Of a stretch of DNA of 64,000 nucleotides, positions 18,827 through 64,000 are shown one piece after another. Each line of letters starts with the position of its first letter. The stretch's first letter is position 1. A model generated the notes under the pieces. That model saw only the letters and a list, made by a program, of their open reading frames with translations, did no database searches and was not told the origin of the DNA. Source of the DNA: Gammaproteobacteria bacterium (GTDB lineage: Bacteria; Pseudomonadota; Gammaproteobacteria; Eutrophobiales; Eutrophobiaceae); NCBI GenBank assembly GCA_965215365.1, contig CBDCDS010000003.1:832001-896000 (forward strand), written 5' to 3'. The position numbers were made by a program, and so were the translations under genes.

Positions 18827-32393
<13,567 letters not shown>

Positions 32394-38879: not shown

Positions 38880-40112
38880 TCAAAACAAATCGGTCAGATC
38901 ATTCTCGTCCTCGACTTGGATTGGCTTGGAAGGCTTGGATGACTCCTTTGCCTGCCTCTGTATAGTGAGATTCCCATCCTGTTGGAGTTTTTCAAAACAC
39001 GTACGAAAAAGGATGTTATCGCTGTCCGTTGCGCTGAAATAAATCCACTTCGTTGCCCGGGTAATTCCGACAAACAGCCATTTATCCAGCCTCTCATCTT
39101 CCAGCCAATTTGGAAAACGGTCGAGGTTCAGGCAAGGCATGAACACGGAATCAACAGTGATGCCCTTGGCGCTTGGGTATGCTATCAGTTTTGGGACTGG
39201 GGTACTGAAATCAATACTGCCGTACCTATTGGCTACTTCTACTTCCAAGCCGGATTCTTGCAGGATATTTGCATAGTTGGAAATTTGGTTTCTGGCGGGA
39301 AACAGGATGGCGATGCGCTCCCCCCTGTCGATTCTGGAACGTAGCGCTTCAACCAGTTTTTTTTGTTCATCTTCATAACTATCTGCGAGGTAGCATAATG
39401 GAGATCGTCGTTCGCCTCTGTCAACAGGTCGATTTTGTTTGATAAATGCCTCTCTTTCCGCCGGATCTCGAATAAAGGAAGCAGCAACCCGCACGATATA
39501 CGGTGAACAACGGTAAGCATCAAGAAGTTGAACATTGCGTTTGTGCAATCCCAACGCAAATAAAATGTTTTTTTCATCCGCCCCATTATCGTACAACTGC
39601 TGTTTGTGATCCATGAATACGGTAACGTGGGCAGCCATTCTGTTGAGCGTTTCATACGCTCGGGTATCCATGTCCTGCCCTTCGTCAACCATAACGAAAT
39701 CATAAAGAGGCAGGGAAACGCGAGGCAGGGATGAAGTCACGCTTTCCCATACCGCCTGCCGAATAGCGTCGAAGTCGGGCCTGTTTTCCTTGCGGGGTAA
39801 AGGTTTATTGATATGTTTCTCATGGAAATCTTTAAACCAACTGTCAAACGTGGTGACACAGTTATCTGGAAGACCAAGATCACGTAACGCAGAGCGGATA
39901 TAGCCCTTCAGCACTTTTGTGTATACAAGGATCCGGTAGCGTTTATCAGGCGATCCGTATTCATCAATCAAATGTCGCGCGCGATGCAACAATACCAAGG
40001 TCTTGCCGGACCCCGGCGACCCTACGACCACGCGATGTTCCCTGGGATTTAATTCAACCGTACGGAGCTGGGCCGGGGTAAGTTCATTTCGAGGAATCAG
40101 CCAACTCATCAC
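38880..40112 (-). CDS. Superfamily 1 (UvrD-like) helicase/ATPase
   Basis: Walker A GSPGSGKT, Walker B VDEGQD, YRCS, AKGITVD, FVGITRA. Overlaps the upstream stop by 4 bp. Confidence 0.88.
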   Translation of the reverse strand: MMSWLIPRNELTPAQLRTVELNPREHRVVVGSPGSGKTLVLLHRARHLIDEYGSPDKRYRILVYTKVLKGYIRSALRDLGLPDNCVTTFDSWFKDFHEKHINKPLPRKENRPDFDAIRQAVWESVTSSLPRVSLPLYDFVMVDEGQDMDTRAYETLNRMAAHVTVFMDHKQQLYDNGADEKNILFALGLHKRNVQLLDAYRCSPYIVRVAASFIRDPAEREAFIKQNRPVDRGERRSPLCYLADSYEDEQKKLVEALRSRIDRGERIAILFPARNQISNYANILQESGLEVEVANRYGSIDFSTPVPKLIAYPSAKGITVDSVFMPCLNLDRFPNWLEDERLDKWLFVGITRATKWIYFSATDSDNILFRTCFEKLQQDGNLTIQRQAKESSKPSKPIQVEDENDLTDLF

Positions 40113-43100: not shown

Positions 43101-43631
43101 AATCCTGATTCCAGCAATTTCCGCGGCCTTTCTTGTGTCGACTCTCTGCGCCACTTGAAAAGAGGCAGGAACGGTAACGACAGTGGTTTCAACAGGCATG
43201 GACTCGTCTGTCAAGGCCGCATCCATGAGGGATTTGAGCACATGTCCGCCGATATCACTGGCTGAGCGGAAACCTTCCGGTGCCTTGCGATAGGTGCCTC
43301 GCACTCCTATATCATTCTTGCAGTCCCAGAAAATGTCCTTATTCCGAACTAATCCAAACTCCTTGAGACGAGGATGTAGCTCTCTGGCCCCCTCACCCAC
43401 GTACCATTTACCTTCGTGAAACGCTACGATTGACGGCACCAGAGTATGCGTGTACAACCCCCTCTGGGTTTCCTGCTCCACTTCAATACAACGCGCATCA
43501 GGCAAGGAGCTCTTGCCTGGCTGCATTACGATTTCGGCTATTGCGGAATTTGTCGTGCCCAAGTCAATACCTATGACACGTCGAGGCCTATCCGATGTGC
43601 TGACCTGAGTGTTATCGTGGATAATCAACAT
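40109..43631 (-). pseudogene. Hsp70/DnaK-like ATPase fused to a TPR C-terminus, split by IS481
   Basis: GIDLGTTNS, TVPASF, DEPVAA, FDFGGGTCD, VGGSSLIP. Removing the IS and one GATTTT copy restores ...ELEKNLGNYEKALYY... as one 794-aa frame. Confidence 0.9.
40651..41782 (-). mobile_element. IS481-family element, complete
   Basis: TGT...ACA ends with inverted repeats (tgtccaggttca / tgaacccggaca), 6-bp target duplication GATTTT, and a transposase at about 40660-41685 with QIDH, QVDGGSEF, NGCVERAN. Confidence 0.93.
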
Positions 43632-43735
43632 TGCGCGACTATAGCACAATTGCCCGGAGATTAGTGTCCAGATCGGGTAACATACCCGGAAGCCTGTTAA
43701 ACATTTATTCGCTTTACCTGTAAGATGAACCCAGG

Positions 43736-43954
43736 ATGAATACTGAACACATCTATACGGCCGGGCTGGGCAAAAACCAGGCCAACTACGCGCCACTGTC
43801 TCCCCTCACCTTCATCGAGCGGGCGGCTGCCGTTTATCCCGATTATGTTGCCGTGGTGCACGGTGAGCTGCGCTTCACCTGGGCCGAGACCTACGGCCGC
43901 TGCTGGCGTCACCCCGGACCTGGTGCGCATCTCGGTGGGATTAGAAACCATTGA
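43736..43954 (+). pseudogene. 5' fragment of an acyl-CoA synthetase
   Basis: [37 protein letters not shown] is a typical N-terminus; the frame then ends. Confidence 0.75.
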
Positions 43955-47925: not shown

Positions 47926-48606
47926 ATGGGGAATGCGTACCGAGGGTCGAAAGCCACGACGGGTCTGTGCCAGCCGCTCATTGCGATGATGCCGCCGCAC
48001 AGTGTGTACATTGAGACACACTTAGGCGGCGGGGCGATTATGCAGCGCAAGCCGGCGGCGTTGCGCAACATTGGGATTGATCTTGATGTGCGGGCGTTGG
48101 CGGGGTTTACGTGTGGGTATCCGGTGGAGTTGGTGCAGGGGTGTTGTCACCGCTGGTTGGCGACTTTTCCGTTTGACGGCACGGAGTTGGTGTACAGCGA
48201 CCCGCCCTACCTGCACAGCACGCGCAAGTCACGGCACCGTTACCGGTATGACTACGAGGACTCAGACCATGAGGCGCTGCTGGCGTTACTGCAGGGGCTG
48301 CCCTGTGCGGTGATGGTGTCGGGGTATCCTTCGGCCTTGTATGATGAGGTGCTGGCGGGCTGGCGCAGTGTGTCCTTGCAGGTGATGAATCAGGGCGGGG
48401 TGGTGACCGAGCGGGTCTGGTTCAATTTTGTGCCGGACCGGGTGCACTGGGTGCGCTATGCGGGGCGCAACTTCACGCACCGCCAGCAGGTCAAGCGCAA
48501 GGCTGAGAACTGGGGGCGGCGTTATCGTGACTTGCCCCCGGCCGAGCGGCTGGCGGTGCTGGCGGCGATGATGGCGGTGGAGGCACAGTGCACATGGCCA
48601 CGGTGA
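47926..48606 (+). CDS. Dam-like DNA N6-adenine methyltransferase
   Basis: YRGSK, YIETHLGGG (motif I), IGIDLD, YSDPPY (motif IV), VSGYPSALY. Confidence 0.82.
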   Translation: MGNAYRGSKATTGLCQPLIAMMPPHSVYIETHLGGGAIMQRKPAALRNIGIDLDVRALAGFTCGYPVELVQGCCHRWLATFPFDGTELVYSDPPYLHSTRKSRHRYRYDYEDSDHEALLALLQGLPCAVMVSGYPSALYDEVLAGWRSVSLQVMNQGGVVTERVWFNFVPDRVHWVRYAGRNFTHRQQVKRKAENWGRRYRDLPPAERLAVLAAMMAVEAQCTWPR

Positions 48607-50111
48607 ACAAGGCCTCATTGCGTGCGGAGTTCGAGGCCATCCGAATGCGTTTTAAGGCGTTGTGCGCCGACGGCGCGCTGAGTCCCGAAGGGCGTGCGCT
48701 GTTCGAGTCGATGTTGCTGCTATTCGAGTTGCTGCTGGCGGTGTTCTTAGAGAAGACCACACCGAAGGGGGCGCACAACTCCAGCCTGCCCAGTTCCCGC
48801 ACCGACCCCGATGACAGTGCGCGCACACGGCCCGGCAAGCAGGGCAAGGGGCCGCAGACCGGGACGGTGCCCAGCGCGTCCCGGCGCGTGGTGGCTCAGA
48901 CCCGCACGGTGCCCGTGACCGGCTGCCGGGCCTGCGGGCATGATCTCAAAGGCACCGCCCCCACCGGCCATGTGCGACGAGTCAAGGTCGATATAGTCTT
49001 CGAGACGACCGAGTTGACCATTGACGCCGAGATAAAAACCTGTCCGCGCTGTGGCACTGAGACCCACGGGGCGTTTCCCGATGACATGCCGGGGCCTTTA
49101 CAATACGGCCCTGGCATCGTGGCTTTCGCCACGCACCTGTTAACGGCCCAAATGCTCTCGCTCAAACGTACGGCGCAGACACTTCATGCACTGACCGGGC
49201 GCGCCGTCGCCGAGGCGACCTTACTGGCCTGGCTCACGCGGGTGCATGAGGCCCTGGCCGGGTGGGAGCGGGCGGCTATCGCCCGCCTGCTCACAGAGCC
49301 CGTGCTGCACGCCGATGAGACCTCCTTGCGCATCGACCGCACACAACACTGGCTGCACAGCACCAGTGCCGGGAACCTGGTACTGAAACACTGCCACCGC
49401 AAGCGGGGCGGGGACGCCCTCAAGGACATCGGCATCGTCCCCCGCTACGGCGGTGTTCTCGTGCACGACCGCTGGGCCAGCTACTTCGCCTATGACAACT
49501 GCGAGCATGCCCTGTGCGGCAGTCACCTGTTGCGTAACTTGGCCTTTATCGAGGACGCCCACGGCCATGCCTGGGCCCAACGTATGAGCCGCCTCCTGCT
49601 CAAGACCTGCCGACAGGTGCGCACACATAAAAACAAGGCACTCAGCGAGACCGACTACCAGTCCCTGCGCACCCGCTACCGGACTATCCTGACACAAGCC
49701 AAACGGGAACTCCCCACACCCCCGAAACGGCTCACCGGCCAACGCGGACGGATTGCCCAATGTGAGGCACAAAACCTCCATGATGCCCTCGTCAAGTACG
49801 AAACCGAAGTCCTCCGCTTCGCCCGCGACCCCAACGTGCCGTTCACCAACAACCGCGCCGAACGCGATATCCGTATGGCTAAAGTCAAACAAAAAGTCTC
49901 CGGCTGCTTCCGAACCACCGCCTACGCCGACACCTACTGCCGCATCTCCAGCTACTTGCAGTCTATGACCCTGAAGGGCTACAATCCCCTCGCCGCCATC
50001 GAGATAGCACTCAAGGGAGACGCCGCCACCATGGTGGAAAAACCGCTCAAAAATAAAACGGTTAAGAAAAACCAGATCAGAACAAGAGATCAGGGTAAGG
50101 GGGGCGAGTAG
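48594..50111 (+). CDS. IS66 family transposase
   Basis: Zinc finger CRACG..CPRCG, LHADET, VHDRW, CGSHLLR, FTNNRAERDIRMAKVKQKVSG. Confidence 0.93.
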   Translation: MATVNKASLRAEFEAIRMRFKALCADGALSPEGRALFESMLLLFELLLAVFLEKTTPKGAHNSSLPSSRTDPDDSARTRPGKQGKGPQTGTVPSASRRVVAQTRTVPVTGCRACGHDLKGTAPTGHVRRVKVDIVFETTELTIDAEIKTCPRCGTETHGAFPDDMPGPLQYGPGIVAFATHLLTAQMLSLKRTAQTLHALTGRAVAEATLLAWLTRVHEALAGWERAAIARLLTEPVLHADETSLRIDRTQHWLHSTSAGNLVLKHCHRKRGGDALKDIGIVPRYGGVLVHDRWASYFAYDNCEHALCGSHLLRNLAFIEDAHGHAWAQRMSRLLLKTCRQVRTHKNKALSETDYQSLRTRYRTILTQAKRELPTPPKRLTGQRGRIAQCEAQNLHDALVKYETEVLRFARDPNVPFTNNRAERDIRMAKVKQKVSGCFRTTAYADTYCRISSYLQSMTLKGYNPLAAIEIALKGDAATMVEKPLKNKTVKKNQIRTRDQGKGGE

Positions 50112-51038: not shown

Positions 51039-51509
51039 AGCGTTCCTGATGCCGGCGGGCTGGAATGGTCAGCATGAAGGCATGAAAGAGGGTACTGTGT
51101 CGATAGCCTCGATTGCTGCCCGGGGCGGGAATCCAGTGGAAAAAAGTCCCGAAGGGACACTTTATAAGGTGTCCCCGGCTGACAACATGCCGGGGGCGGC
51201 GCGAGCGACGGTTTGAGCGAATGGATTCCTGCATTCGCAGGACCAATCGGCAGGATAGCCGAATTGCAAACTACATCCATGTAGTTTGCCCCGATGAGGC
51301 CAGCTACGCTGTCCAAATTCGTTCCAGACGAATTTGGACAGCAACAGCTGCCCGCAGGGTTGCGTCCAGAGCCTGCCTCGGTATGGAGTTGAGCCGGGGG
51401 AGGGACGCAATGAGTGACGGCCAGGGGGTGAGTAGTTACGAAACATGATTGCTATCAATAGGGGCAAACCACCTCCGCAACATGTCGGCGGTGTCGCCCA
51501 GGTTGAAGT

Positions 51510-53030
51510 TCATTTTTGCAGCTTGGCTATAATTGTTTCAATAATGTTTAACGCCTCTGCTGGAGACGGGGAAATTTCAATCAGTGTTTGAAATACTCTC
51601 TGATATATCTGTGTTTCAGGGGTGGCACTTCCGGGTAGCGCGTCCCGCCTAGGGAGATTTTTTAACTCAAGCAGACTTGCTGCTAATGTCTCAAGCGCGC
51701 CGAGCTCATTTTTTTTTCCGCCCGATTTTTCAAGACCCGCTTGCAACGTCGCAATATCGCCCAGTTTTTTGTCGATGAACCATTCCACCGTCTCTTCGGC
51801 AAGGTAAGGGGATGCTGCAAGCTCCGAACTTGCTTGCACTTCCTGAAGAAACGAGTGAAATTTTCGCTTTCTGTTGCGTTCGGCAGAAGCGGCGCGACAA
51901 CGCTTTTCTATATTGCACGTGATAGCACCAAGCTGATTTTCCAGGTTGCGGGTATGCGGGCCGGGTTCAAAATAATCCCGCTTCGCGTTGGGAATAATAC
52001 GCGCGTCAAGAACATGAATTTCCGCCACACACCAACGATTAAAGCGGTCTTCTGTAAAGAGGTGATCGAACAATGTCTCATCGCCAATCTGGATATTACC
52101 GATGCGAGCGCGAATCCCTCTGACAGCGGTCTTTTTCGGCAACGCGCCAGCATAAGACGAGTGTGCAATCCAACCGATGGCGGCAATCCGGTCTGTTTCT
52201 ACAGCCGGTATGGAGATACTTTCAAACTCGGTAAACTCGAACTGTTCCGGCAATGCTCCATTTTTGCCATGCGGCCTTGTTATCGACATGTCCTCCCCGT
52301 TGAGGTGAACGTTCAGTTCCAACGGAGGATGCTCTTCAGGAAAGATATTGGCGATGTTGCCGGTGTATTGAAAATTCGGAATAAACGGAACCGGACATGT
52401 TTCTCCAATATACTCTCGCACAACCTTTGCGTTCAGGATCGACCCTGCTGCGAAACGGGCTATCCCGTCAATGTCCACCTGAAAAAACCGCGCTGGCCAC
52501 TCACTTCCTGACGTGGTCTCAGTGCTGACGCATTCCGCAATGAGTTGTTCCACAGACAGACCAGCAGTCACCTTTTTTCGTAAACCTTTGCCGTCCCAAC
52601 GCACAGAAATAACGGGCTCATCATCCTGTTGACGGGTGTAGAAGGTGACTGAATCGCTGAAAGCCAATCCAGACAGTCTGCCTATGCCCCTGAAGCCGCG
52701 GTCAACCCCGACACGTTTGGTGCTGTTTGCAACAGGTGTCAGTTCCCGCAACGCTTGCGTGCGCGCTAGTCCCAGACCATTATCCCGTATGACTACGCGC
52801 CTGTCGGCAGGGTCGATGTTGATTTCCACCTTGCCCGTATTTGGCGCGTCTGACGCAACGATAGAGTCCGCCGCGTTTTGAATGTACTCGCGGTAAATGC
52901 TCAACGGCGCAGTATGTATGCCGGACGTGAGCAGACTTAACAGGTTACTCCCTGTCAATCTATCGGGCAGGAAGGCGTCTGTAATGATGAGGTTGTTGTG
53001 TTCCGGCATCTCGCACCTGTCAGGAGCCAA
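51510..53030 (-). CDS. GHKL (Hsp90/MutL/MORC-like) ATPase
   Basis: YREYIQNAADS, IRDNGLGL, GFRGIGRLSG, S5-like region GIRARIGNIQIG, coiled-coil tail. Confidence 0.87.
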   Translation of the reverse strand: MAPDRCEMPEHNNLIITDAFLPDRLTGSNLLSLLTSGIHTAPLSIYREYIQNAADSIVASDAPNTGKVEINIDPADRRVVIRDNGLGLARTQALRELTPVANSTKRVGVDRGFRGIGRLSGLAFSDSVTFYTRQQDDEPVISVRWDGKGLRKKVTAGLSVEQLIAECVSTETTSGSEWPARFFQVDIDGIARFAAGSILNAKVVREYIGETCPVPFIPNFQYTGNIANIFPEEHPPLELNVHLNGEDMSITRPHGKNGALPEQFEFTEFESISIPAVETDRIAAIGWIAHSSYAGALPKKTAVRGIRARIGNIQIGDETLFDHLFTEDRFNRWCVAEIHVLDARIIPNAKRDYFEPGPHTRNLENQLGAITCNIEKRCRAASAERNRKRKFHSFLQEVQASSELAASPYLAEETVEWFIDKKLGDIATLQAGLEKSGGKKNELGALETLAASLLELKNLPRRDALPGSATPETQIYQRVFQTLIEISPSPAEALNIIETIIAKLQK

Positions 53031-54675
53031 CGCGTTGTTTCCTGGGCGCTAGTCTGTTGTGCTCTGCTGTTGATCTTTGTCCGAACTCTTCCTGTTCGTA
53101 CAGCCCGGCATCTTCCACCATCTCTTCCGCGTCTGGCAATACCGGATCTGGATTGAGCCGGGGAAACAGTGCCACGACGCGTTGATCATCAATGATCGTG
53201 GTATCTTTTGTGCCTAGCGCGTGGTACCTGATGACCTCGCGCACCTGCGTATCCACGCCCAGCGAACCGGCGAGGCGCAGGTAGTAGTCAGCGCGCGCCT
53301 TTTCGCCACCGGTGGGTTCTGCAAGGTAAGTCAGCAATTCTTCTTCCTGGCTTTTTGACAGCTTCCGACGCAAGGCATCATAGGCCTCTTTAACAGGCTG
53401 ACCAGCCCCGCTTTCAAAATACTCCCGGTGGAATATCATGCCTGACGGATAGCTCAGAAGGCGCATAAATTCCTCGTTATTTTTACCAAACGCGCGTTGA
53501 AAAAAGGCGGGGTTCCCACTGACCATGCCGTGGGTGGCCTGCAGGATAACCTGGAACGTGCGCAGGTAGTAGCGGTTCCAGCGTGGCCCGACATGCGACC
53601 GATCTTTCAAAGTAACCGGCTGGTAGCGCATGGGGAAAGACCAGATACGAATGCCCAGTTCGTCATTCAGCTTTATGTTCAATGCCAGTCGCTCGTACAA
53701 GTCCTGCGGGGTATCCTTGAAATTGTAGAGCATATAGTTCGACAAAGAGGTAATCCTGTTGTCTGCCGCCATGCGCACCGACGTTTCATATACCTTGCGC
53801 ACGCCGATGTGGTCGAATGCAATACGCAGGGGGCTGAGGCAGATAGTAGCCATTTCCTTGAGATACATTGGCGACTTTGCCAGGATGCGGGCGTCCACCC
53901 CTTGGTTGAAGTCTACCCGGCGTTTTACCGGCCTGCCGTTGCGCGTCAGGGTAGCGCCCGGAGTGAAGCCCAGCGCCCTGATTTCTGCAATGATCTCCCG
54001 GTAACGGCTGGACGCAGTTATATTGTTGTCCATCAGGATCAGATCTTTCTTTTCACCGTGTCGGTCTGCAATATCTTGCACCAGAGCAGCCAGCGACGGC
54101 ATTTCCCTTTGTGTACCTTCCAGTTTGGGCACACCGCAGAAATGGCATTTGCGAATACAGCCCCTGGACGCATAGCAAAAATAGGCATCGTGGACCGGGT
54201 AAGTGTAGTCAATGTGCTCAAGGACACTGTAATCTGGAGTCTGTTCTTCAATGGGGACGCCGGTCGTGTCCTCTGCGCCAAAATCACCATCGGCGGCGGA
54301 CAGTGACAAAGCCTGTGCCGGCGGGCCATCCAGCAAGCCCGCAATAAACCGCACACCCGCCCAGCGTGGTTCGTTGATGAACTCCTGCAGCATAAGGGAA
54401 GCTGCGATACCCCCTACAAACACACGCTCCGACTGGTTGCCAGCGGCTTGTATGGCAAAGTCAATAGCTTGCGCGGTGCGCTTCCATTCAAAACTGAACA
54501 GCGTGGTCACATAGACCCGGTCCCACACCTCAAGCAACACTGCCCTGTCATCGCCCTTGACAAGTCTGACGAAATCGCCCCGCTTACGGTGATACGCCGC
54601 TAGCTTCATCAGGCCGAGGGGCGGATATTTATTGCGGTAGCCGGGTTCTACCAAGAGGACTCTGAAGCGGGTCAT
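53020..54675 (-). CDS. Radical SAM protein with an N-terminal Rossmann/B12-binding-like domain
   Basis: CxxxCxxC in SRGCIRKCHFCGVPKLEG; N-terminal KYPPLGLMKLAAYH, VFVGGIAASL; LMDNN; VDFNQGVDAR. Confidence 0.9.
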   Translation of the reverse strand: MTRFRVLLVEPGYRNKYPPLGLMKLAAYHRKRGDFVRLVKGDDRAVLLEVWDRVYVTTLFSFEWKRTAQAIDFAIQAAGNQSERVFVGGIAASLMLQEFINEPRWAGVRFIAGLLDGPPAQALSLSAADGDFGAEDTTGVPIEEQTPDYSVLEHIDYTYPVHDAYFCYASRGCIRKCHFCGVPKLEGTQREMPSLAALVQDIADRHGEKKDLILMDNNITASSRYREIIAEIRALGFTPGATLTRNGRPVKRRVDFNQGVDARILAKSPMYLKEMATICLSPLRIAFDHIGVRKVYETSVRMAADNRITSLSNYMLYNFKDTPQDLYERLALNIKLNDELGIRIWSFPMRYQPVTLKDRSHVGPRWNRYYLRTFQVILQATHGMVSGNPAFFQRAFGKNNEEFMRLLSYPSGMIFHREYFESGAGQPVKEAYDALRRKLSKSQEEELLTYLAEPTGGEKARADYYLRLAGSLGVDTQVREVIRYHALGTKDTTIIDDQRVVALFPRLNPDPVLPDAEEMVEDAGLYEQEEFGQRSTAEHNRLAPRKQRVGS

Positions 54676-55676
54676 TGGCTTATTTTTTCAATCATACTGT
54701 ATATTCTGTCGACTTCCCGCTTAAGTTTACGAGTATCCTGTTTTATTGCATTTAGTGTGTTCTGGTCTGATTTTTTCAACTCTTTTTCTTCAATAGTCTC
54801 GATGGTGCCAAGTGCGCGTCTGACCCGTTGCTGTACCTTGCTGGTTTTTGCTTCTTGATAGGCGTCATCAAAAGTCAAATCTTCTTCAATATATTTTTTC
54901 AGAATCTTGGGTTTGCCTATGATTGCTGGGAGCTTGTTTCTCAGTTCCAGAGCTGTGAAATCATTTTCATCATTATCTAGGCCAGCATGCCTGATCCTTT
55001 TCAAGAGAAGATTTTTCAAGCGTCCATCTTCTTCGGTTGCCTGCACAATTTTCCGTGTTGTGACCATAACCTCGTAATAGCTGAAGTGAGATGGCTCCTC
55101 ATCCCCATTTCTCTTCATTTGATCAATAACTCTGACCCTGTTGCTGATAGTTTTCTCAGTCTCACCAAACAACTTGGCGATATTTGTTTCTGTCCAACCC
55201 CTCTCTTTCCTTACATAGGCAAGATTGGCTTTTTCATACGCTGACCATTGCGTCTTGCCTTTTACGTGAATCTGGTTAAGAAATGCAAATTGCTGTTCAT
55301 CCGTTAGCTTGCTGACTATGTCGCATTGGATCAGTCCCCAATCCTTTTCGGGCTGCTTTTTGTGGAGTTTACGATAGACGGCAAGCCGAGAATTGCCCTC
55401 GATAACTTCCATAGTGTCGTGGCGAACCAATATCGCTTCCAGGAGGCCCCCGTGTCTTTTTATCTCAGGCTCCAGATTTTTAACGCTGGCCTCCTTTAGA
55501 AGTTTTTCGTATATGAGATCTTGCTGTTCCTCTTCCGATAATTCGTTAAATTCCGATATTCCATGGGTACACGCATACACCCGCGGATTGTCGGACAGGA
55601 ATTTCAGTTTGTGTATTTCCAGAAAATCAGAAGAAACTTCGATGTTCTCTCCCATTATTTTTATGGAACGAGTCAT
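54672..55676 (-). CDS. ParB/Sulfiredoxin-like N-terminal domain protein
   Basis: DNPRV, GGLLEAILV, VIEGNSRLAVYRKL, WSAYEKA, followed by an HTH-like segment. Confidence 0.78.
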   Translation of the reverse strand: MTRSIKIMGENIEVSSDFLEIHKLKFLSDNPRVYACTHGISEFNELSEEEQQDLIYEKLLKEASVKNLEPEIKRHGGLLEAILVRHDTMEVIEGNSRLAVYRKLHKKQPEKDWGLIQCDIVSKLTDEQQFAFLNQIHVKGKTQWSAYEKANLAYVRKERGWTETNIAKLFGETEKTISNRVRVIDQMKRNGDEEPSHFSYYEVMVTTRKIVQATEEDGRLKNLLLKRIRHAGLDNDENDFTALELRNKLPAIIGKPKILKKYIEEDLTFDDAYQEAKTSKVQQRVRRALGTIETIEEKELKKSDQNTLNAIKQDTRKLKREVDRIYSMIEKISQ

Positions 55677-57175
55677 GTGATCGGTGTCTCCTCAAAGTTT
55701 TGGTTTTGGTTGCGTTTGCTGGGTGCCAGAATACGTTTCAGTTCGCCAGACAGATCAGCGTTAAACATCTGAGTAAATTCGGTGCCAGATATGTCTCCCT
55801 GCACCAGCTGCGCCGCTTGATGCTTCGCATTCAACAACGTATCCACCCATTCGTCAATAGTATTGTTCGCTGTCAGGTTATGCACGAAACAGTCGTCAGT
55901 TTGGGAAATTCGGTGAATGCGGTCCTGGGCTTGCAAGTAATCGTCGAGGCTGAAACTGCGGTCAAAAAATACCGCATGGTTGGCAACAGTGAGCGTCAAA
56001 CCCTCCTTTGCTGCACCAGGTGTGGCAATCAATATTCGATTGTCGTTATCGGTTTTGAATTTCCCGACCGCTTCATTGCGTTCTGCAATAGTCAAATTGC
56101 CGTGCAGTTTTTGTGGATTGTAATGTTGCAACCTGTCACTCAGCCACTCCACATTAGCAATAAAACTGGTCCATACTATAGCTTTGCTTGACGAAAGAAT
56201 GTCTATTTCCTGAAACAACTCGAACAGTTTCGTATATTTCCCCGGATCGCTTTTGTACGCTTTGTCCACCAGCGCGGGATTCGAAGCACATTGCACCAAC
56301 CGCAGAAGTTGTTTCAGGATACTTTCCACCTCATCAATAACTACCTCTCCATCAACCACAAATTCGTGTGCAAGAGTATCTCTATAAGACTCATAAATGG
56401 CGGCTTGTCTAGGCTCCATTTCAACAGGATGTGTCAAGATCATTTTGTCTGGCAGTTCCAATCCCGCAGTTTTTTTTGTCTTGCGTATGGAGAACGGCTT
56501 TAGTTTCTGCAGGATACCGGAGAGTCGGTCAGCGTACTCATGTCCGGTATGTTGTGTTTTCGGTAGATCAAAATCATTTTCAAATTCGGCGAAGGAACTG
56601 CCGAGCGCTTGCCCATCATCAAGGAATCTGATCTGCGACCAGATGTCGTAGGGACGATTAGCAACAGGTGTGCCGGTCATAATAATGCGGCGCGTAAAAC
56701 CATCTGCAATGGTGAGAAAGTCCTTTGTAATCCTGGCTTCTGGATTTTTTATTTTTTGGCTTTCGTCCAGAATGGCGCCAACCCGGCAGGTATCAAGGAA
56801 CAGCCTTAATAACTCAAAATTCGCCGAGACCAGTTCATAGTTCGTAATGTAAACCAGTATGGGAGAATTTAACGCGATGCTGTTTTCACGTCGATTACCG
56901 GATAAGATTTTTGGAGTTATGTGTGAATGAGCGACCACTTCTTCGAACCAGTTTTGTACCAGCATTTTCTTGGTTATAACAAACACCGTGTCAATAACAT
57001 CTGCCTCCAGCCAGTGTAATAATAAATCGACCGCTATCTTAGTTTTTCCCAATCCTTGTTCGTGAAATATCGCGGCGTAGGAAAGCGATTTAACCGCCCT
57101 TACAGCGTCAACCTGATACGGGTAGGCATCCAGTTTGGGCGTTAACTTCGGGGGTTTTCTTAGGTTAAAAGCCAC
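55673..57175 (-). CDS. SNF2-family (SF2) helicase/ATPase
   Basis: YPYQ, EQGLGKT, LDESQKIKN, MTGTPVAN, EGLTLT, QAQDRIHRISQ. Confidence 0.92.
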   Translation of the reverse strand: MAFNLRKPPKLTPKLDAYPYQVDAVRAVKSLSYAAIFHEQGLGKTKIAVDLLLHWLEADVIDTVFVITKKMLVQNWFEEVVAHSHITPKILSGNRRENSIALNSPILVYITNYELVSANFELLRLFLDTCRVGAILDESQKIKNPEARITKDFLTIADGFTRRIIMTGTPVANRPYDIWSQIRFLDDGQALGSSFAEFENDFDLPKTQHTGHEYADRLSGILQKLKPFSIRKTKKTAGLELPDKMILTHPVEMEPRQAAIYESYRDTLAHEFVVDGEVVIDEVESILKQLLRLVQCASNPALVDKAYKSDPGKYTKLFELFQEIDILSSSKAIVWTSFIANVEWLSDRLQHYNPQKLHGNLTIAERNEAVGKFKTDNDNRILIATPGAAKEGLTLTVANHAVFFDRSFSLDDYLQAQDRIHRISQTDDCFVHNLTANNTIDEWVDTLLNAKHQAAQLVQGDISGTEFTQMFNADLSGELKRILAPSKRNQNQNFEETPIT

Positions 57176-57603
57176 TGTATTCCGCCGTGAGAGTCAAGCA
57201 GCCACAAATCACAGGTGTCAAACACTTCCAACTTCGTGTTCTTGACTTGCAATTCCATACGCATAAACCGGAGCAGAGTTTTAGCGCGAGTTGCGCCAAC
57301 ACCCGTTACCACGAGAATAAAATAACCCAGTTTTTGCCTTTCCAGATGGCTTATGAAAGAGGTCAGTTGCGCGCGGGTATGCGGGCTGTCAATGTCATTA
57401 TCTGTTTTAGCCTCTGCGATAACAACCAACCCCTCACAATCTTGCCGAGCATATACATCCGGCCTGTAACCACCAATGAATGGCGGCAGTTCGTCGCCGG
57501 GAGACTGTTGCAAATCAGCGTTGAGCTTGAGCCCCGGGTAGCGTTGCACAAGTTTCTCGACGATTGACTGAACTAGACTCCTGTGGGCATCACTTTGAGA
57601 CAT
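57160..57603 (-). CDS. Small PD-(D/E)xK restriction-endonuclease-fold protein
   Basis: YRPDVYA...VIAEAKT...QL; overlaps both neighbours. Confidence 0.62.
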   Translation of the reverse strand: MSQSDAHRSLVQSIVEKLVQRYPGLKLNADLQQSPGDELPPFIGGYRPDVYARQDCEGLVVIAEAKTDNDIDSPHTRAQLTSFISHLERQKLGYFILVVTGVGATRAKTLLRFMRMELQVKNTKLEVFDTCDLWLLDSHGGIQWLLT

Positions 57604-58624
57604 TACTTAACAGGTGTTGCAACTGTTCTTCCAGATCTTCAAGTGCTTGTACTTGTTCTTTGGCATCATCGTGTTCTCTATCCATAAGGTGACGCAGTTC
57701 GGAGAGGGGCATGTCGTCTATACGACGCGCCAGCGTCTCCGCCAACTGGTAAATCGATGCACTCCGTAGCGTTACCTTGCTCGGCGCTCCTCCCTTCTTT
57801 TTGTCGGCCTTGTTGTCACATACTTTGATCGCGTCCTCTATTGAACGAGGCCCACCGTCAAGAAACTTTTCCTTTGCTTCTTCGTCGCGCAAAACTTTCG
57901 GTAACTGACGTACATCGGCCAGACGGTATATTTTGCCATCCTTAATCCATCCGCCAAAGTCCTCCATCTCAAGTCCGGCTTCAAAAATAGCTTCCTTGAT
58001 GCCCGGTTTTTGTAACTCAACGAAACCGCTGAAACGGTCAATGTGGAACGCGGCATCGTCAACCAGCTCTCGGTAGTAATCATTCATATCGTGGTATGCG
58101 TCAATTTGCCGCTCGATATCCTTTCTATTGCCACCGCAGAGGGCGATCATCTGGTCGTAGTCCATAAACTTCTGGTTGCGTAGATAATGCAGATACCTCG
58201 CTTTTTCGTAAGCCGGCCACTCTCGGGTGCCGACAAGATGCGTCGACACGCGAATTGCTTCAATGTCTTCCTGCCTCGCGTTATCAAGCACTATGGCATT
58301 GATCTCATACCAGTTGCCGGGCGCACCTTCCTTGAACAGTTCCTTATAGATTGCAAGCCGGGTATTCCCGTCTATGCAAACCCTTCTCTTTCCATCGTGG
58401 TTGACGGTAATCGGCACAGTGATTCCGCCGTTTGCCCGAATTGAGCCTCTGAGGCGGTTATACGACGAGGCGCCATTGGATTCTTCTGTGGCAGAGCGCA
58501 AAGCAAAATGAATACGTTCTGCGTTCAACCCATCACCGTATTTTTCGAGGGCTTTTTTTATTCGGGGGTTGTCCGTGTCGAAATCTATGGTTTCGACTTT
58601 CAGCATTTCAAACTTTTCTCTCAT
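57590..58624 (-). CDS. ParB/Sulfiredoxin-like N-terminal domain protein (paralog of 54672-55676)
   Basis: DNPRI, SIRANGGITVPITV, CIDGNTRLAIYKEL, WPAYEKA. Confidence 0.78.
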   Translation of the reverse strand: MREKFEMLKVETIDFDTDNPRIKKALEKYGDGLNAERIHFALRSATEESNGASSYNRLRGSIRANGGITVPITVNHDGKRRVCIDGNTRLAIYKELFKEGAPGNWYEINAIVLDNARQEDIEAIRVSTHLVGTREWPAYEKARYLHYLRNQKFMDYDQMIALCGGNRKDIERQIDAYHDMNDYYRELVDDAAFHIDRFSGFVELQKPGIKEAIFEAGLEMEDFGGWIKDGKIYRLADVRQLPKVLRDEEAKEKFLDGGPRSIEDAIKVCDNKADKKKGGAPSKVTLRSASIYQLAETLARRIDDMPLSELRHLMDREHDDAKEQVQALEDLEEQLQHLLSNVSK

Positions 58625-58710
58625 CGTCTGTCACCTGACGTTAATGTGATCTTCCTGTATTTTGTCAGAATCAACCTATGCGTTGGCTGACAAGTGTAAC
58701 TATGCCGGTC

Positions 58711-58739
58711 AGTATATCTTTGTGACCAACTGATTGCAA
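58711..58739 (-). promoter_or_regulatory. Sigma70-type promoter of the six-gene operon
   Basis: Minus strand TTGCAA (58739-58734), 17-bp spacer, TATACT (58716-58711). Confidence 0.62.
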
Positions 58740-58743
58740 GGAG

Positions 58744-59877
58744 TGTCCAGGTTCAATACATATGAGACTCAGAGGCAGGCTGTGTGAGTTGTTGATAATA
58801 CTCCATTGGGGTTAATAAACCAATACCGTCATGCGGGCGGTAGGTATTGTAGTATTGCTGATACTCGGCCAGTTTGCGGTTGATGGCGGCCACGGTCAGT
58901 GGACCCTCGTAGAACGGATAGAACTCATAGCGGCTGGTGGCATTGGCGCGTTCTACACAGCCGTTGTATTCGGGTTTTTTCGGGGGCAGCACGTACAGGG
59001 GGATTCCTAAGTCCTGGCAAGCCTGCTCGAACTCATCTCGGAACTCCGAGCCGCCATCGACCTGGATAGAACGGATGGGAAACGGCGCCTCACCGAGCAG
59101 CGCTTTTAAGAAGCGCCGGGCATTGCCACTGGTGGCCCGACTGTAGGCTCGCAGCGCACTCCATTTGCTCACCGGACAGACGGCCTTGAACTCCTTCACC
59201 GTGATGCCGTCCGTGAAGCCGACACTCATGTGGTCTATCTGCATCAACTCCCCTGGCGCCTTAGCCTTCATCCCGTAGCGCCAGCGCTTGGCATGATGGG
59301 TAAACGCCCGGCGGCGCTTAGGCTTCACCCGGCCATAGTAAAACGCCACCGGCTTGACCCGACCTAGCCGCACCAGCTTCGCCACGATGCGCCCGACCGT
59401 ACTCTCGCTCAAAGTCCAGCCCTGCTCGCGCACCCCCACCCGCCAGAGCTTGCGCTTGCCCCATAACGGATAACGTTGGCGAAGGTGCAAGACCTGCTGC
59501 TCGTGCTGGCGCGTCCATTGCGGCACACGCCGCCGCCGCGGCGCACGGGAGCCACACCCCAGACCCTTCAGCCCATGTTCACGATACCGCTTCAACCAAC
59601 GGTAGTAGGTCGCCCTCGACCCACCTACTGCTGCCAGTGCCGTCGCCTCACCACACCCATCCTCGCGTAACGTCGCAACTAATTCCAACTGCTTCAAACG
59701 ACCGCGCGCGTCAGCATCGGTAGTATCATCGACGCGCCAACTGCGATATGATTTCACCCGCTTACCTTTTGATCTGCATCGGGTAGTCCTCCTGTGTAAG
59801 TTAATCGAAATCACTTTACACACTTCACTACCCGATTTCTTTATCTAAAGAGTCTCACTTGTTTCTGAACCCGGACA
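58744..59877 (-). mobile_element. IS481-family element, second copy, with a damaged transposase start
   Basis: Near-identical to 40651-41782. The start reads atg cag atc aaa agg TAA instead of atg cag atc aaa agc ctg. No target duplication (aaggag / gctaca). Confidence 0.9.
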
Positions 59878-59930
59878 GCTACAAATATCAACTAGGCACT
59901 ATAACTGCCTGTTCCAAAAAACGTTTTGAT

Positions 59931-60311
59931 TTACAAGAGATTTTCAGATAAAGTAAGCACCAGACCGTCGAAGTCGGGAGCTCGGTAGGCAGATCGAGCC
60001 GTTTTTTGATGATCGCGACCAGGACATAAACGCCAGTTGCGGGTTTGGTTGGCATGGGCCAGGGTATTACGGGCGACCCTGCCGCGTAGTCCTAAGTGGT
60101 AGAGTTTGTCCGGGTGTGCGCGCAGGCAGACCTCGATATCGCGCAGGCTCTCGCGGTGGGTGAGTTGGGCGAAGGCCAGGCATAGGAACTGGTCGAGGCA
60201 GGTAAAAGACTTGACGTAGCGGTTACCGTGGTAGCGTTGGACGCAGCGGCGGAATGCTTTCATGGGTAGGTGGTCCATGACTTGCGAGAAGACAAATTGG
60301 CCGGTGGGCAT
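59931..60311 (-). pseudogene. IS4-family transposase remnant (DUF4372-like N-terminus, internal deletion)
   Basis: GQFVFSQVMDHLP..YVKSFTCLDQFLCLAFAQLTHRESLRDIE; the DDE core is absent. Confidence 0.85.
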
Positions 60312-60465
60312 GGTGATTTCTCCTGATGATGATGAACATCGGGAGGGTAACATCAACCGGCGGCGGCAGTTTTAATCGATACCCCTGAAAAATCTCTGAT
60401 TTATGAACAAAATGAATGAGTTATACTACATCAATATGATTTTCTTGGGACACTAATGATAAATC

Positions 60466-61557
60466 ATGGCTAAACTGGAAAGTCTCACCGTTCACGGCTT
60501 CAAATCGATCCGGTCACTGGAGGACTTCAAACCCGGGCCTCTTAATGTTCTTATCGGGGCAAATGGCGCTGGGAAGAGTAATTTCATTAGTCTGTTCAAT
60601 ATGCTGGCACGTGTTGTCGAGCGGCGCTTTCAGGTTTTTGTTGCTGAACAGGATGGCCCGGAAGCAATGCTTTTTGGCGGCAGGAAGCGGACTGAGCGTA
60701 TGGAAGTCGAGCTCACCTTTGGCAAAAACGCTTATGGTTTCTCTCTTGTTCCGGCAGGTAACCGGCTGATATTCGATCAGGAGAAAATGCGTGTTTTTGG
60801 CGACTGGAAAACGTCCACGCACACACTAGGCAGCGGTCATGACGAATCCAGGCTGAAAGATGCAGAAGATACCGGGCAGAGCAGCTTTGCCTCTTACGTG
60901 TCGGCTGCGGTAAGGAGTTGGCGGGTGTACCATTTCCATGACACCAGTGCGACAGCGCCGATGCGCCAGTCACAGGCAGTTCGGGACAATATGTATCTCA
61001 AACCTGATGCAGGCAACCTGGGGCCTTTTCTGCGCTATTTGCGCGAGCAGCACCCGGAACATTACCGGCAAATCATGGAAACAGTCCGGTTGGCAGCGCC
61101 ATTCTTCGACGATACGATTTATCGAAAGAATACCGATGAGCGGATGGAACTGGAATGGTCCCACAGGAATGACCCTGATACGGTACTGGGACCGCGTCAG
61201 CTTTCAGACGGGACACTTCGTTTTATCTGCCTCACGACTCTACTTCTGCAACCACCAAGCCTGCTGCCGGACTTGATACTTGTCGATGAACCTGAGCTGG
61301 GCTTGCATCCTTACGCGCTCAGCTTATTGGCTGAGATGTTAAGACAAGCCTGCGATGCAAGACAGCTTATTGTTTCAACACAATCCGCCGACCTTGTTAG
61401 TGAACTTGCTCCCGATGACATCGTTGTGGTCGACCGCCAAGATGAGGCGTCCTGCTTCAGAAGACTGGATGCTGATAACCTGGAGGAGTGGCTGCAAGAC
61501 TATGCGCTGGGCGATATGTGGAAGATGAATATCCTTGGTGGCAGGCCTGGCCAGTGA
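60466..61557 (+). CDS. ABC/SMC-like AAA ATPase (AAA_21 type)
   Basis: HGFKSI, GANGAGKS, LSDGT, VDEPELGLHP, STQS. Confidence 0.92.
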   Translation: MAKLESLTVHGFKSIRSLEDFKPGPLNVLIGANGAGKSNFISLFNMLARVVERRFQVFVAEQDGPEAMLFGGRKRTERMEVELTFGKNAYGFSLVPAGNRLIFDQEKMRVFGDWKTSTHTLGSGHDESRLKDAEDTGQSSFASYVSAAVRSWRVYHFHDTSATAPMRQSQAVRDNMYLKPDAGNLGPFLRYLREQHPEHYRQIMETVRLAAPFFDDTIYRKNTDERMELEWSHRNDPDTVLGPRQLSDGTLRFICLTTLLLQPPSLLPDLILVDEPELGLHPYALSLLAEMLRQACDARQLIVSTQSADLVSELAPDDIVVVDRQDEASCFRRLDADNLEEWLQDYALGDMWKMNILGGRPGQ

Positions 61558-62240
61558 TAAATATCATTGTCGTCTGCGAAGGCCAGACTGAAGAGGTTTT
61601 TGTAAATAAGGTGCTACTGCCAGAACTGTTAACACGAGACGTATTTATCCAGCCGAGACTGATTGCAACATCCAAGCGGTCGAAAGGGGGGGCGCTTGCC
61701 GGACAAAGGGTGCTACGCTTTCTCCGTAATACTTTGCGAGAACGCAAAGATGCTTATGTGACAACACTCTTCGATATGTACGGGTTGCCCGCCGGCTTTC
61801 CCGGCCTTTCGGCTGCTATTTCTGAAACCGATCCATTGGCTCGGGCTACAGCAATTGAAGTCGGTTTCCATGCAGAGGTCATTAGTGAAGCAGAGTGTCG
61901 TGAAGGCCGGTTCATACCACATATTCAGCCGCACGAATTTGAGTCCCTGCTTTTCTCAGACGTATCGCAGTTTGCCCAAGCCGAGCCGACATGGAAACCG
62001 TTCGTCAGCCAGTTTGAAACACTTGCACAATCCGCCTCAAGCCCTGAGCACATTAACGATGGACCTGAAACACATCCTTCGGCGCGTCTCCGACAGCTGC
62101 GTCCTCCATACAAAAAGGTGAGCCATGGGTATGCCATCTCTTCAAGGATTGGCCTTGAGTGCATTCGAAATAAATGTCGCCATTTTAACAAGTGGTTATC
62201 ACGCATTGAAAGCGTTCAACCGTTGAAACAGGCAGGGTAG
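61554..62240 (+). CDS. DUF4276-family TOPRIM-like protein
   Basis: GTG overlaps the ATPase stop. Motifs [44 protein letters not shown]. Confidence 0.82.
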
Positions 62241-62244
62241 CTCC

Positions 62245-64000
62245 ATGAGCGTGTTTACGGAGTCAGTCGTAGAAGACGCCGCCCTCGATTGGCTTCGAGG
62301 GTTGGGCTACAACGTCATCGCCGGGCCGGATATGCCGCCGGGGCCTCATGCGCTGCGGGAAAGTTATTCCGAGGTGGTTTTTGCTTCAACCTTGCGCGGC
62401 GCCGTGAGGCGTATTAACCCGAACCTGCCGGATGAGGCCGTGGATGACGCTTGCCGCAAGCTGCTCGGCCCGGAAGGCGCCACGTTGGCGGCTCGTAATC
62501 GGGCTGTTCATCGCATGCTGGTGGATGGGGTCACAGTGGAGTATCGGGACGCTGACGGCGCAGTCCGGTGGGCACAGGCGCAGGTGCTTGATTTTGATGA
62601 TCCCGATAATAATGACTGGCTGGCTATCAACCAGTTCACAGTCACCGAGAACGGCCATGAGCGTCGTCCCGACCTCGTGCTGTCCGTCAACGGCCTGCCG
62701 CTGGCGCTGATTGAACTCAAGAATCCGGCCAGTGAGGAAGCCACGATCTGGAGCGCCTGGCAACAACTCCAGACCTACAAGAACGAGTTGCCAACCCTGT
62801 TTGCTTTCAATGTGGCTCTGATAATCTCGGATGGCGTCCAGGCCCGTATCGGTTCGCTCACTTCCGGTAAGGAATGGTTCAAACCGTGGCGCACAATTGA
62901 TGGCCAGAAACCAGCGCCGGTGTTTCTGCCCGAACTCCAGGTATTGATCGAAGGTGTGCTGGAAAGGCGCCGCTTGCTCTCCCTGTTGCGTGACTTCATT
63001 GTCTTTGAGGATGACGGCAGCGGCGCGCTGGTGAAGAAGTTGGCCGGCTACCACCAGTTTCACGCGGTGGCAGTGGCGGTAGCAGAAACCTTGCGAGCCG
63101 CTGAACTCAGGTTGGCTGAGGAACCGGGGCGGCATGAAACAAGGCGTAACCCGGGTGGCGCCGCCGGCGATCGTCGTATTGGTGTCGTCTGGCATACTCA
63201 GGGTTCAGGCAAGAGCCTGACCATGGCGTTTTATGCGGGACGAATTGTCCGGGAACCGGCGCTGAGGAACCCGACCGTCATAGTATTGACCGACCGTAAT
63301 GATCTGGACGACCAACTGTTCGGCATGTTTGCCAGGTGTGGGGACTTGTTGGGACAACCACCTGCACAGGTGGAGGATCGGGCGGATTTGCGGGCGAAAC
63401 TGGCGGTAACATCGGGTGGCGTGGTATTTACCACTATCCAAAAGTTTTTTCCGGAGGAAAAAAGCAGTCGCTACCCGGTGCTGTCCGAGCGCCGCAATAT
63501 CGTGGTCATTGCCGATGAGGCCCATCGCAGCCAGTACGATTTCATTGATGGCTTCGCCCGCCACCTGCGGGATGCGCTCCCCAACGCTTCTTTTATCGGT
63601 TTCACCGGCACGCCGATTGAACTCCAGGATGCGAACACCCGGGCCGTGTTCGGTGACTACATCAGCGTTTACGACATTCAGCGGGCGGTTCAGGACACTG
63701 CGACGGTGCCCATCTACTACGAGAGCAGGCTTGCCAGACTCGCACTTGATGAGCATGAACGCCCGCATATCGATACCGGTTTCGAGGAAGCTACCGAAGG
63801 GGAAGAAATTGCGTGCAAGGAAAAGCTCAAAACCAAGTGGGCGCAACTCGAAGCGATAGTGGGCGCCCATAAGCGTCTGGCGCTGGTGGCGCAGGACATC
63901 GTTGCACATTTTGAAGATCGCCTCGAGGCTATGGCCGGCAAGGCGATGATCGTTTGCATGAGCAGGCGTATCTGTGTCGAGCTTTATCGCGCACTGGTGC
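62245..64000 (+). CDS. hsdR: Type I restriction enzyme R subunit, 3' end outside the window
   Basis: Not in the ORF track because it has no stop in the window. Segments translated by hand: [17 protein letters not shown]...[22 protein letters not shown]...[12 protein letters not shown]...DEAHRSQY...GFTGTP. Confidence 0.95.

Follow-up and report, generated by a model that had tools for sequence, protein, structure and literature searches.

A mobile six-gene cassette built on a radical-SAM enzyme and an HSP90-like ATPase: a candidate modular defence system with exchangeable partners

The window, a 64,000-nt stretch of contig CBDCDS010000003.1 from a gammaproteobacterium, holds a cassette of six genes, lettered A to F in operon order and all on the minus strand, which encode a ParB-like protein (gene A, ParB1), a small nuclease (B), an SNF2-family protein (C), a second ParB-like protein (D, ParB2), a radical S-adenosylmethionine (radical-SAM) enzyme (E) and an HSP90-like GHKL ATPase (F). 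The cassette is best explained as one form of a widespread, horizontally mobile and modular conflict system whose core, genes E and F, is translationally coupled. An earlier reading made from the DNA letters (the sequence-only reading) had taken the six genes as one indivisible system. This did not survive comparison with other genomes, in which the radical-SAM and GHKL pair is the constant core and the ParB-nuclease-SNF2-ParB block is one of several interchangeable modules. It is very likely that the cassette is a real and conserved functional unit, and a role against phages or plasmids is probable. The finding may be placed among modular defence systems that follow the modification-restriction type and use ParB-family components, and its chemistry would be categorically new if gene E marks DNA.

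Core pair and exchangeable partners

A scan anchored on gene E and limited to one genome per species gave 31 loci, with eight or more phyla named. Gene F is the direct neighbour of gene E in 30 of them, the remaining locus being a 3-kb contig. The partner modules, labelled by neighbour clustering and hidden Markov models (HMMs), are more varied. Genes A-B-C-D accompany the core in ten loci and, together with a DGQHR protein (c5), in four more plus one that is broken. Another five loci carry c5, alone or together with c6, which fuses DGQHR and Swt1-like HEPN domains in about 760 aa, and four carry c6 alone; the DGQHR models match c5 at 5.6e-33 (TIGR03187) and c6 at 8.3e-59. In four loci the gene order is F-E and the partners are c9 and a HerA/mad8-like ATPase (c8). 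Two loci (L008 and L025) have no recognised partner, and in one the contig is too short. A ParB-superfamily partner is therefore present in 24 of the 31 loci (A/D in 14 plus the broken one, c5 and/or c6 in nine), and in L011 and L026 a DGQHR protein is all that accompanies the core.

A second scan, independent of gene E, was anchored on ParB1 and covered the best 80 of 580 metagenome relatives. Complete A-D blocks occur in 47 of these 80 loci, and E/F is found in all 23 of the 47 that are flanked by at least 3.5 kb on either side, so co-occurrence of the genes is conserved elsewhere from either starting point. Because all 23 A-D loci carry E/F and many E-F loci lack A-D, the A-D block appears to depend on E-F and not the reverse. 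E-F stands without A-D in 16 of the 31 loci of the first scan, and the placement of one block relative to the other varies: in the 40 loci that contain the two, E/F follows A-D on the same strand in 22 and on the opposite strand in five, and lies upstream of it on the same strand in three and on the opposite strand (divergent) in ten, with c5 before gene E in 21. Both observations would suit two unrelated systems that share an island. This explanation is nevertheless highly improbable, given that E/F lies within a few kb in every one of the 23 roomy A-D loci, that the sole roomy locus with a gene A homologue but no E/F (L037) lacks B-D as well, and that the six genes overlap in one operon in the window.

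Exchange of the modules is visible in an IQ-TREE phylogeny of 30 gene E proteins, on which the partner labels need 12 changes against a minimum of 6 and a shuffled mean of 17.7. One clade (support 99/100) mixes four A-D and three c6 loci on very short branches, and the Chloroflexota, Verrucomicrobiota and Acidobacteriota entries are nested within Pseudomonadota. These label changes and the nesting across phyla indicate that partner modules have been exchanged and that the system is horizontally mobile. The family is also large. The gene E profile, run against 1.84 billion representatives, retrieves 2973 proteins at E <= 0.001, 1635 at <= 1e-10 and 537 at <= 1e-30, a spread of at least 537 clusters at 50% identity. 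In a collection clustered at 90%, 7469 of 8000 scored candidates match, and the only name that the source gives them is "radical SAM protein".

Two further arrangements were seen around the core. In four loci (L007:13221-13826, L012:6697-7317, L013:13199-13873 and L028:1264-1899) gene F is followed by c7, a protein of about 210 aa predicted to have 3-4 transmembrane (TM) segments. No family of Pfam, NCBIfam or PADLOC matches it, an Atlas lead points to 8xMP/RipA-like membrane clusters, and it may be a membrane effector. A divergent branch (L022, L023, L029 and L030, with the viral loci L127-L136) consists of c9 (about 380 aa), c8 (about 560 aa), the GHKL protein and the radical-SAM protein; it has no ParB-family gene, and many of its members lie on IMG/VR contigs.

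Gene E and its phage relatives

The CxxxCxxC motif of gene E reads CIRKCHFC. Its three cysteines (C173, C177 and C180) are kept by 25 of 25 sequences, and no other cysteine is invariant. The Pfam radical-SAM match is below threshold (20.1 vs 29.5 bits), and membership of the superfamily follows from the motif together with the matches of the predicted fold. The structural model (pLDDT 82.9, pTM 0.81) begins with a Rossmann-like N-domain, continues through a radical-SAM barrel into a C-domain made of helices and ends in a disordered tail. The nearest folds are AprD4 (Z 17.7 over 361 aligned residues), MgmA (16.6), TsrM (15.7) and MiaB (15.1), followed by CysS, TokK and OxsB, with AprD4 ahead of the methylases by only about 1-2 Z units. 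On account of these neighbours, gene E is assigned by its model to the B12-binding-domain radical-SAM clade, although the substrate cannot be read from the fold. The class B N-terminal fold is seen in the matches to TsrM, MgmA, OxsB, TokK and CysS at Z 13-17, and the best match, AprD4, is cobalamin-free. The Pfam B12-binding family does not match gene E and reaches sub-threshold scores in three of nine longer relatives scanned.

With the members of this clade (TsrM, MgmA, TokK and CysS; AprD4; MiaB/RimO) gene E shares the two-domain fold and CxxxCxxC. It differs from them in being only 12-16% identical, in its own invariant motifs (MDNN, DFNQGxDAR, PLRIAFD, SNYMLYNF and FPMRYxP) and in a conserved acidic tail, and its use of cobalamin is only putative. 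Mean column identity within the gene E family is 43% across phyla. The disordered tail (53020-53120 in the window; alignment columns ~795-812) contains a conserved acidic (D/E)ExVEDAGL motif, which 21 of 25 sequences have and the four most divergent lack; it looks like a docking peptide. A methylthiotransferase of the MiaB/RimO type can be set aside, since no cysteine beyond CxxxCxxC is invariant and a second [4Fe-4S] cluster is thereby ruled out. Gene E likewise matches no PADLOC family at E <= 0.01, a database that presumably contains the pVip model, and viperin is not among the fold matches listed. A search of the 966-2755 aa range, which is weak evidence, showed no fused or longer forms; relatives of 687-824 aa in the representative library carry extensions that belong to no Pfam family.

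Relatives of gene E are also found in phages. Among 69 in IMG/VR contigs, seven occur with E-F and A-D and nine in the order c9-c8-F-E, while about 39 (L142-L180) are short stand-alone forms of about 310 aa without gene F. The two short forms inspected (L143:8007-8942 and L149:7917-8855) belong to phrog_9298, annotated "radical SAM domain protein", and have primase, ATPase, exonuclease, portal or head genes nearby. Homologues in phrog_9298 are 26% identical to gene E, and the motifs peculiar to the family are common to both. Phages thus appear to carry a compact version of the enzyme, which may serve in DNA modification or counter-defence.

These data bear on the possibility that gene E leaves DNA alone and produces an antiviral or toxic nucleotide analogue by radical dehydration, in the manner of viperin or AprD4, with the ATPase and the ParB nucleoside triphosphate (NTP) binders acting as switches and A-D as an added DNA-degrading arm. 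Prokaryotic viperins are radical-SAM defence enzymes and provide a precedent, and the top fold match of gene E is itself a radical-SAM diol dehydratase, within about 1-2 Z of the methylases. ParB folds bind CTP, ATP or GTP, according to the available text of one article (PMC12704722). This explanation is still rather unlikely. The recurrent partners are all nucleic-acid enzymes or DNA-binding families (ParB, DGQHR, SNF2, PD-(D/E)xK, HEPN and HerA-like), gene E is matched by no PADLOC family, viperin included, and a phage would gain little from such an analogue, yet phages carry the stand-alone homologues in replication modules.

Gene F and its predicted contact with gene E

Gene F matches Pfam HATPase_c_3 above the cut-off (2.9e-7), and its profile matches HtpG (2ior) at 4.9e-12, with HSP90-family chains as the only sequence-level PDB matches listed. 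The invariant Bergerat residues are E48, N52, D55, D83, G85 and G112-R118. The model (pLDDT 84.3) shows an N-domain, a middle domain and long C-terminal helices, and in Foldseek it matches HSP90 (8gae) at 2.2e-14 and MORC4 (7k7t) at 1.7e-12, with about 38 HSP90/TRAP1 entries ranked above MORC4. The Bergerat motifs, the HtpG profile match and the N-plus-middle-domain fold place gene F in the HSP90 branch of GHKL, and it is nearer to HSP90/HtpG than to MORC. The domain calls of the sequence-only reading (ParB, nuclease, SNF2, ParB, radical SAM and GHKL) are broadly upheld, but its description of the ATPase as specifically MORC-like is not. A second F-like GHKL paralogue lies beside the system in four loci (L006:17468-19405, L011:14017-15681, L022:6758-8326 and L026:7117-8676).

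Contact between the two core proteins was modelled by co-folding residues 1-530 of gene E with residues 30-499 of gene F, from separate alignments, in three runs and with three controls. The ipSAE value was 0.42 against 0.00 for the best control, with one run at 0.01, and the verdict was weak support. Of 80 solved complexes, 58 pass the mark applied, as do two of 110 mismatched pairs; at values of 0.60 or less, only seven of the 80 solved complexes reach it, together with both of the passing mismatches. Agreement of contacts between runs was at least 0%, and the partner pLDDT was at least 77. The prediction would thus nudge the odds of pairing slightly, and it reveals no interface.

Genes A to D

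The six proteins were scanned against Pfam, NCBIfam r20 and PADLOC-DB v2, and catalytic motifs are intact in all six. Genes A and D have zero Pfam matches. The gene A profile, built from 13 homologues, matches PDB chains of Noc (7ol9, the best at E 1.1e-5), SbnI, sulfiredoxin and ParB, and its invariant residues are N19-P20-R21 and G86-N87-R89. Gene D alone gives only a marginal ParB match (4umk, E 0.15). Compared with each other by hhalign, however, the two are paralogues (probability 100%, E 9e-39 over 307 columns), and both retain the NPR and GN(T/S)R motifs. The profile matches of gene A, the invariant motifs and the paralogy of gene D make both members of the ParB/Srx superfamily. The DGQHR family models (TIGR03187/PF14072) match neither gene, and gene D shows no similarity to the c5 profile. 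In another locus (L017:5616-8801), three ParB paralogues stand consecutively.

The Pfam AHJR-like match of gene B (E 3e-4) is below the cut-off, and its assignment to the PD-(D/E)xK fold comes from the PD...(D/E)xK motif: P48-D49 and A65-K66 are invariant, and position 64 is E or D, in ten of ten homologues. Gene C exceeds the Pfam cut-offs for SNF2-rel_dom (2.1e-28, 99.7 bits) and Helicase_C (6.1e-16, 59.1 bits), with GLGKT in 14 of 15 homologues and DE[SA][QH] in 11 of 15. Its generic matches to ZorD, DpdE and DrmD reflect the shared helicase core only and fall far under the NCBIfam equivalog cut-offs.

Comparison with described systems

The scans of all six proteins returned no system-level match in PADLOC-DB v2, NCBIfam r20 or Pfam, and A, B, D, E and F each lack a PADLOC v2 or NCBIfam model that names them, in agreement with the sequence-only reading that no named system fits. 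These scans showed no signature protein of BREX, DISARM, Zorya, Dnd/Ssp, Dpd, Menshen, Mza, Hma, MADS or Tiamat. For Zorya, DISARM, BREX, Dpd and Hma, the expected ZorA/B, DrmA/B, PglZ/PglX, DpdA and HmaB/C are unmatched, the helicase core of gene C being the only resemblance. For Menshen, Mza, MADS and Tiamat, no Nsn, Mza or mad match was obtained, and gene F reaches TmtA at only 19.7 bits through the N-domain of the ATPase; the mad8 and HerA matches belong to c8 of other loci.

The literature, supplementary tables lying outside the search, gave no description of the six-gene system or its core except one sentence in an October 2026 preprint (10.64898/2026.10.19.760177, section 32), which mentions a neighbourhood of PAACC, HSP90 and Radical SAM. 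The claim that the system is undescribed therefore stands apart from this one sentence in the available text of the preprint. There, the HSP90 and radical-SAM pair is treated as regulators of an effector. This triad is the sole printed link found between an HSP90-like and a radical-SAM protein in an immune context; the available text gives no ParB, SNF2 or nuclease partners, and its families may or may not be those of E and F. The c7 membrane protein is probably not the PAACC cyclase of that preprint, in view of its 3-4 TM segments and its 8xMP/RipA-like lead.

The closest parallels lie among systems that modify DNA. Dpd is a 7-deazaguanine DNA-modification and restriction cluster in which DpdA and DpdB have their parts. 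The c5 proteins of other loci score 1.4e-18 and 2.3e-17 against DpdB models, short of the curated cut-off, and both systems have an SNF2-type helicase, gene C matching DpdE models at 2.2e-38; the cassette, on the other hand, has no DpdA transglycosylase or preQ0 pathway gene, and genes A and D are not DGQHR proteins. With Dnd and Ssp (DndABCDE plus DndFGH or PbeABCD; SspABCD plus SspE), the cassette shares a constant core and a ParB-superfamily protein of the DGQHR/DndB type, restriction modules that are variable and often absent, and a defence-island context, and PbeA genes neighbour some of the related loci. It differs in lacking DndA/C/D/E and any Ssp protein, in having a radical-SAM enzyme as the candidate modifier, and in its HSP90-like ATPase, where those of Dnd and Ssp are ABC or AAA+.

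Parallels to single components were also found. A phage thymine dioxygenase (5mYOX) needs a ParB activator on double-stranded DNA, as stated in the available text (PMC13229309), and this pairing of a base-modifying enzyme with a dedicated ParB-fold partner resembles the role that ParB2 or a DGQHR protein may have beside gene E. As far as that text goes, the dioxygenase is an Fe/2OG enzyme and not a radical-SAM one, and it is phage-encoded without ATPase, nuclease or helicase. Gene F resembles Tiamat, paraMORC and HSP90-like effector fusions in its N-terminal Bergerat ATPase, middle domain, dimerising C-terminus and immune context. It differs from them in having no fused nuclease or phosphoesterase and in being always paired with a radical-SAM enzyme, and its match to TmtA of Tiamat is weak (4.3e-5) and confined to the N-domain.

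A possible mechanism and its alternatives

The mechanism favoured here, though held tentatively, follows a modification-restriction logic like that of Dnd, Ssp and Dpd, with gene E as the DNA modifier. In this scheme, a dimer of the gene F ATPase would clamp DNA, and an NTPase of the ParB family (ParB2 in the window, a DGQHR protein elsewhere) would load or activate the gene E enzyme on the duplex. Gene E would then write a covalent self mark, and a swappable read-and-destroy module would attack incoming DNA that lacks it. In the window this module would be ParB1 with the PD-(D/E)xK nuclease and the SNF2 translocase, and in other loci a DGQHR-HEPN fusion or a membrane protein. The roles of gene E as modifier, gene F as clamp and ParB as loader are suggested by the ParB/DGQHR proteins that accompany Dnd, Ssp and Dpd, according to the available text of PMC10853773, by the matches of c5 to DpdB models and by the ParB activator of the phage thymine dioxygenase. 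Three observations suit the modification reading: the combination of a constant core with variable or absent restriction modules, as in Dnd/Ssp, the existence of core-only loci, and the copies of the enzyme in phages. The roles proposed in the sequence-only reading (radical SAM in place of a methyltransferase, ParB sensing NTP or DNA, and motors delivering the nuclease) are plausible by analogy, and the phage-encoded homologues lend them some support. A more specific version, which would make this a new class of immunity resembling restriction-modification, is doubtful: the self mark would be a C-H functionalisation beyond the reach of SAM methyltransferases, made by a radical-SAM and possibly cobalamin-dependent enzyme with an HSP90-like clamp and a ParB-fold loader, read by ParB-nuclease modules and answered by phages with a compact copy of the enzyme.

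Several points weigh against modification-restriction. That gene E acts on DNA is inferred by analogy, and its nearest folds use other substrates, namely an aminoglycoside (AprD4), amino-acid residues (MgmA/TsrM) and tRNA (MiaB). There is no obvious sequence-specificity subunit among the six genes. The core-only loci (L011 and L026; L008 and L025) fit a modification-only module, but they would fit an effector or a sensor as well. The HEPN and membrane-protein partners are of a kind typical for effectors of abortive infection and not for restriction enzymes. The predicted E-F complex is weak, one of its three runs giving 0.01, and the defence genes among the neighbours were counted without a background control. 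Finally, the sole printed reading of an HSP90 and radical-SAM pair, in the available text of 10.64898/2026.10.19.760177, makes the two regulators of an effector.

This last reading corresponds to a guarded effector of the toxin-antitoxin kind, in which E-F senses infection or restrains an effector and the variable partners, once freed, cause abortive infection without any self mark; the effectors would be the nuclease with SNF2, HEPN, the membrane protein or the PAACC cyclase of the preprint. It would account for the interchangeability of the partner modules on the gene E tree and for the suicide-type effectors among them (HEPN and the 3-4 TM c7), section 32 of the preprint reads the PAACC, HSP90 and Radical SAM triad in this way, and between relatives gene F diverges more than the other five, with 46% identity in L002 where E has 70%. 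A guarded effector is nonetheless unlikely. Full conservation of the radical-SAM active site and strong conservation of the substrate-side surface (43% mean column identity and many invariant motifs) would be costly for a regulator, and L008, L011, L025 and L026 are core loci without a recognisable effector.

If modification-restriction is correct, this would be the first defence system to use radical-SAM chemistry on DNA itself, and a new DNA modification would exist in many environmental bacteria, across at least 537 clusters at 50% identity and eight or more phyla. ParB-fold and HSP90-like proteins would gain a defined job in loading a DNA-modifying enzyme, with a link to the ParB-activated phage thymine dioxygenase. 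Whatever the mechanism, a core with swappable partners offers natural variants for separating the sensing part from the killing part.

Mobility, distribution and defence context

The extent of the mobile unit is given by a related cassette, at L001 in the same genus, that is similar across the whole of it and has unrelated flanks (Table 1). Gene E occurs in four of 41 related genomes and in three of 23 within the genus, the window's own genome included. Identical cassettes with identical flanks occur in L002, a Gammaproteobacteria metagenome-assembled genome (MAG), and in L003, a Nitrospira MAG. They are not counted as evidence of transfer because they may be one contig binned twice, which is more likely than a recent transfer.

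Neighbouring genes were surveyed in 26 loci, five near-duplicate loci being excluded, through the nearest 111 of 169 eligible open reading frames (ORFs) of at least 200 aa. Pfam families among these 111 include integrases, transposases, relaxases and ResIII, DEAD and UvrD helicases, and strong PADLOC matches include PbeA (two ORFs), a type I methyltransferase, IetS, a DRT reverse transcriptase, PDC-S02 and others. The defence genes among the neighbours are supportive and do not amount to a measured enrichment. Together with the insertion sequence (IS) flanks, these integrases, transposases and PADLOC families bear out the mobile and defence setting that had been claimed for the cassette.

A cassette that is not immune at all, and that serves mobile elements through DNA repair, partition or maintenance or else modifies DNA or RNA for regulation, is quite unlikely. 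Partition is a classic task of ParB proteins, DNA repair is known among radical-SAM enzymes and spore photoproduct lyase is among the distant fold matches of gene E, and the neighbours are indeed rich in integrases, transposases and relaxases. However, no ParA partner or centromere-like repeats were noted, and the intact nuclease and SNF2 motifs, the HEPN variants, the patchy distribution and the defence-gene neighbours suit a conflict system better.

Locus layout and surroundings

Table 1. Features of the cassette and its surroundings, in positions of the window
Feature	Positions	Strand	Description
Mobile cassette	51476-58743		blastn vs L001 13201-5937, 85% identity, flanks unrelated
Gene F	51510-53030	minus	506 aa, TTG start, HSP90-like GHKL ATPase
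Gene E	53020-54675	minus	551 aa, radical-SAM; Rossmann (B12-binding-like) N-domain, helical C-domain, acidic tail
Gene D (ParB2)	54672-55676	minus	334 aa, paralogue of gene A, motifs NPR and EGNSRLA
Gene C	55673-57175	minus	500 aa, minimal SNF2-family helicase/translocase
Gene B	57160-57603	minus	147 aa, small PD-(D/E)xK nuclease, AHJR-like
Gene A (ParB1)	57590-58624	minus	344 aa, ParB/Srx-fold N-domain, motifs D..NPR and (E/D)GNTR
Promoter-like TTGCAA-17-TATACT	58739-58711	minus	9/12 consensus positions match
rve-type IS copy	58744-59878		1135 bp, ends 5 bp from the -35 hexamer
IS66 transposase	48588-50111
Transposase fragment	59931-60356		DUF4372
AAA_21 ATPase, DUF4276 and HsdR-type restriction subunit	60466-63999		HsdR continues beyond the window

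The ORF list confirms the layout first described, six intact minus-strand ORFs overlapping by 4-16 bp, with overlaps of 14, 16, 4, 4 and 11 bp between successive genes from A to F. The first 28 residues of gene F are not conserved and are poorly modelled, and its real start may be the ATG at codon 8. Also as first described, the block is richer in AT, with a GC content of 0.47-0.48 across genes A-D (54-58 kb), whereas most of 6-32 kb has about 0.58-0.71.

The promoter named in the sequence-only reading fared less well. Its hexamers are present, and the 5' region from TTGCAA to the start codon is conserved in the L001 cassette (85% identical, with CATACT as the -10). As a pattern, however, the pair is weak and at chance level: the region has 13 promoter-like sites against 7.8 +/- 2.9 in shuffles, which is not significant. 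The hexamers are no better than many chance sites, and what weight they have is owed to the conservation in L001.

The IS flanks and the ABC-ATPase/DUF4276/hsdR neighbour named earlier were located as rve-type IS, IS66 and AAA_21, DUF4276 and HsdR genes, the last three immediately upstream of the IS next to the cassette. A second copy with 98% identity to this IS lies at 40651-41783, and the two direct copies flank about 17 kb that contain an Hsp70-like gene, a malic-enzyme/PTA fusion gene, the IS66 element and the six-gene cassette, a stretch that may be a composite transposon. Beside the first copy, 38880-43796 holds a UvrD-like ORF that matches helicase-domain ends only, a TPR protein and a 678-aa Hsp70-like protein, which may be remnants of another conflict system. 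Farther away, at 23869-25599, a 288-bp unit is repeated in tandem in about six copies (82-95% identical) with high GC and strong AT skew, and is probably a repetitive protein-coding gene.

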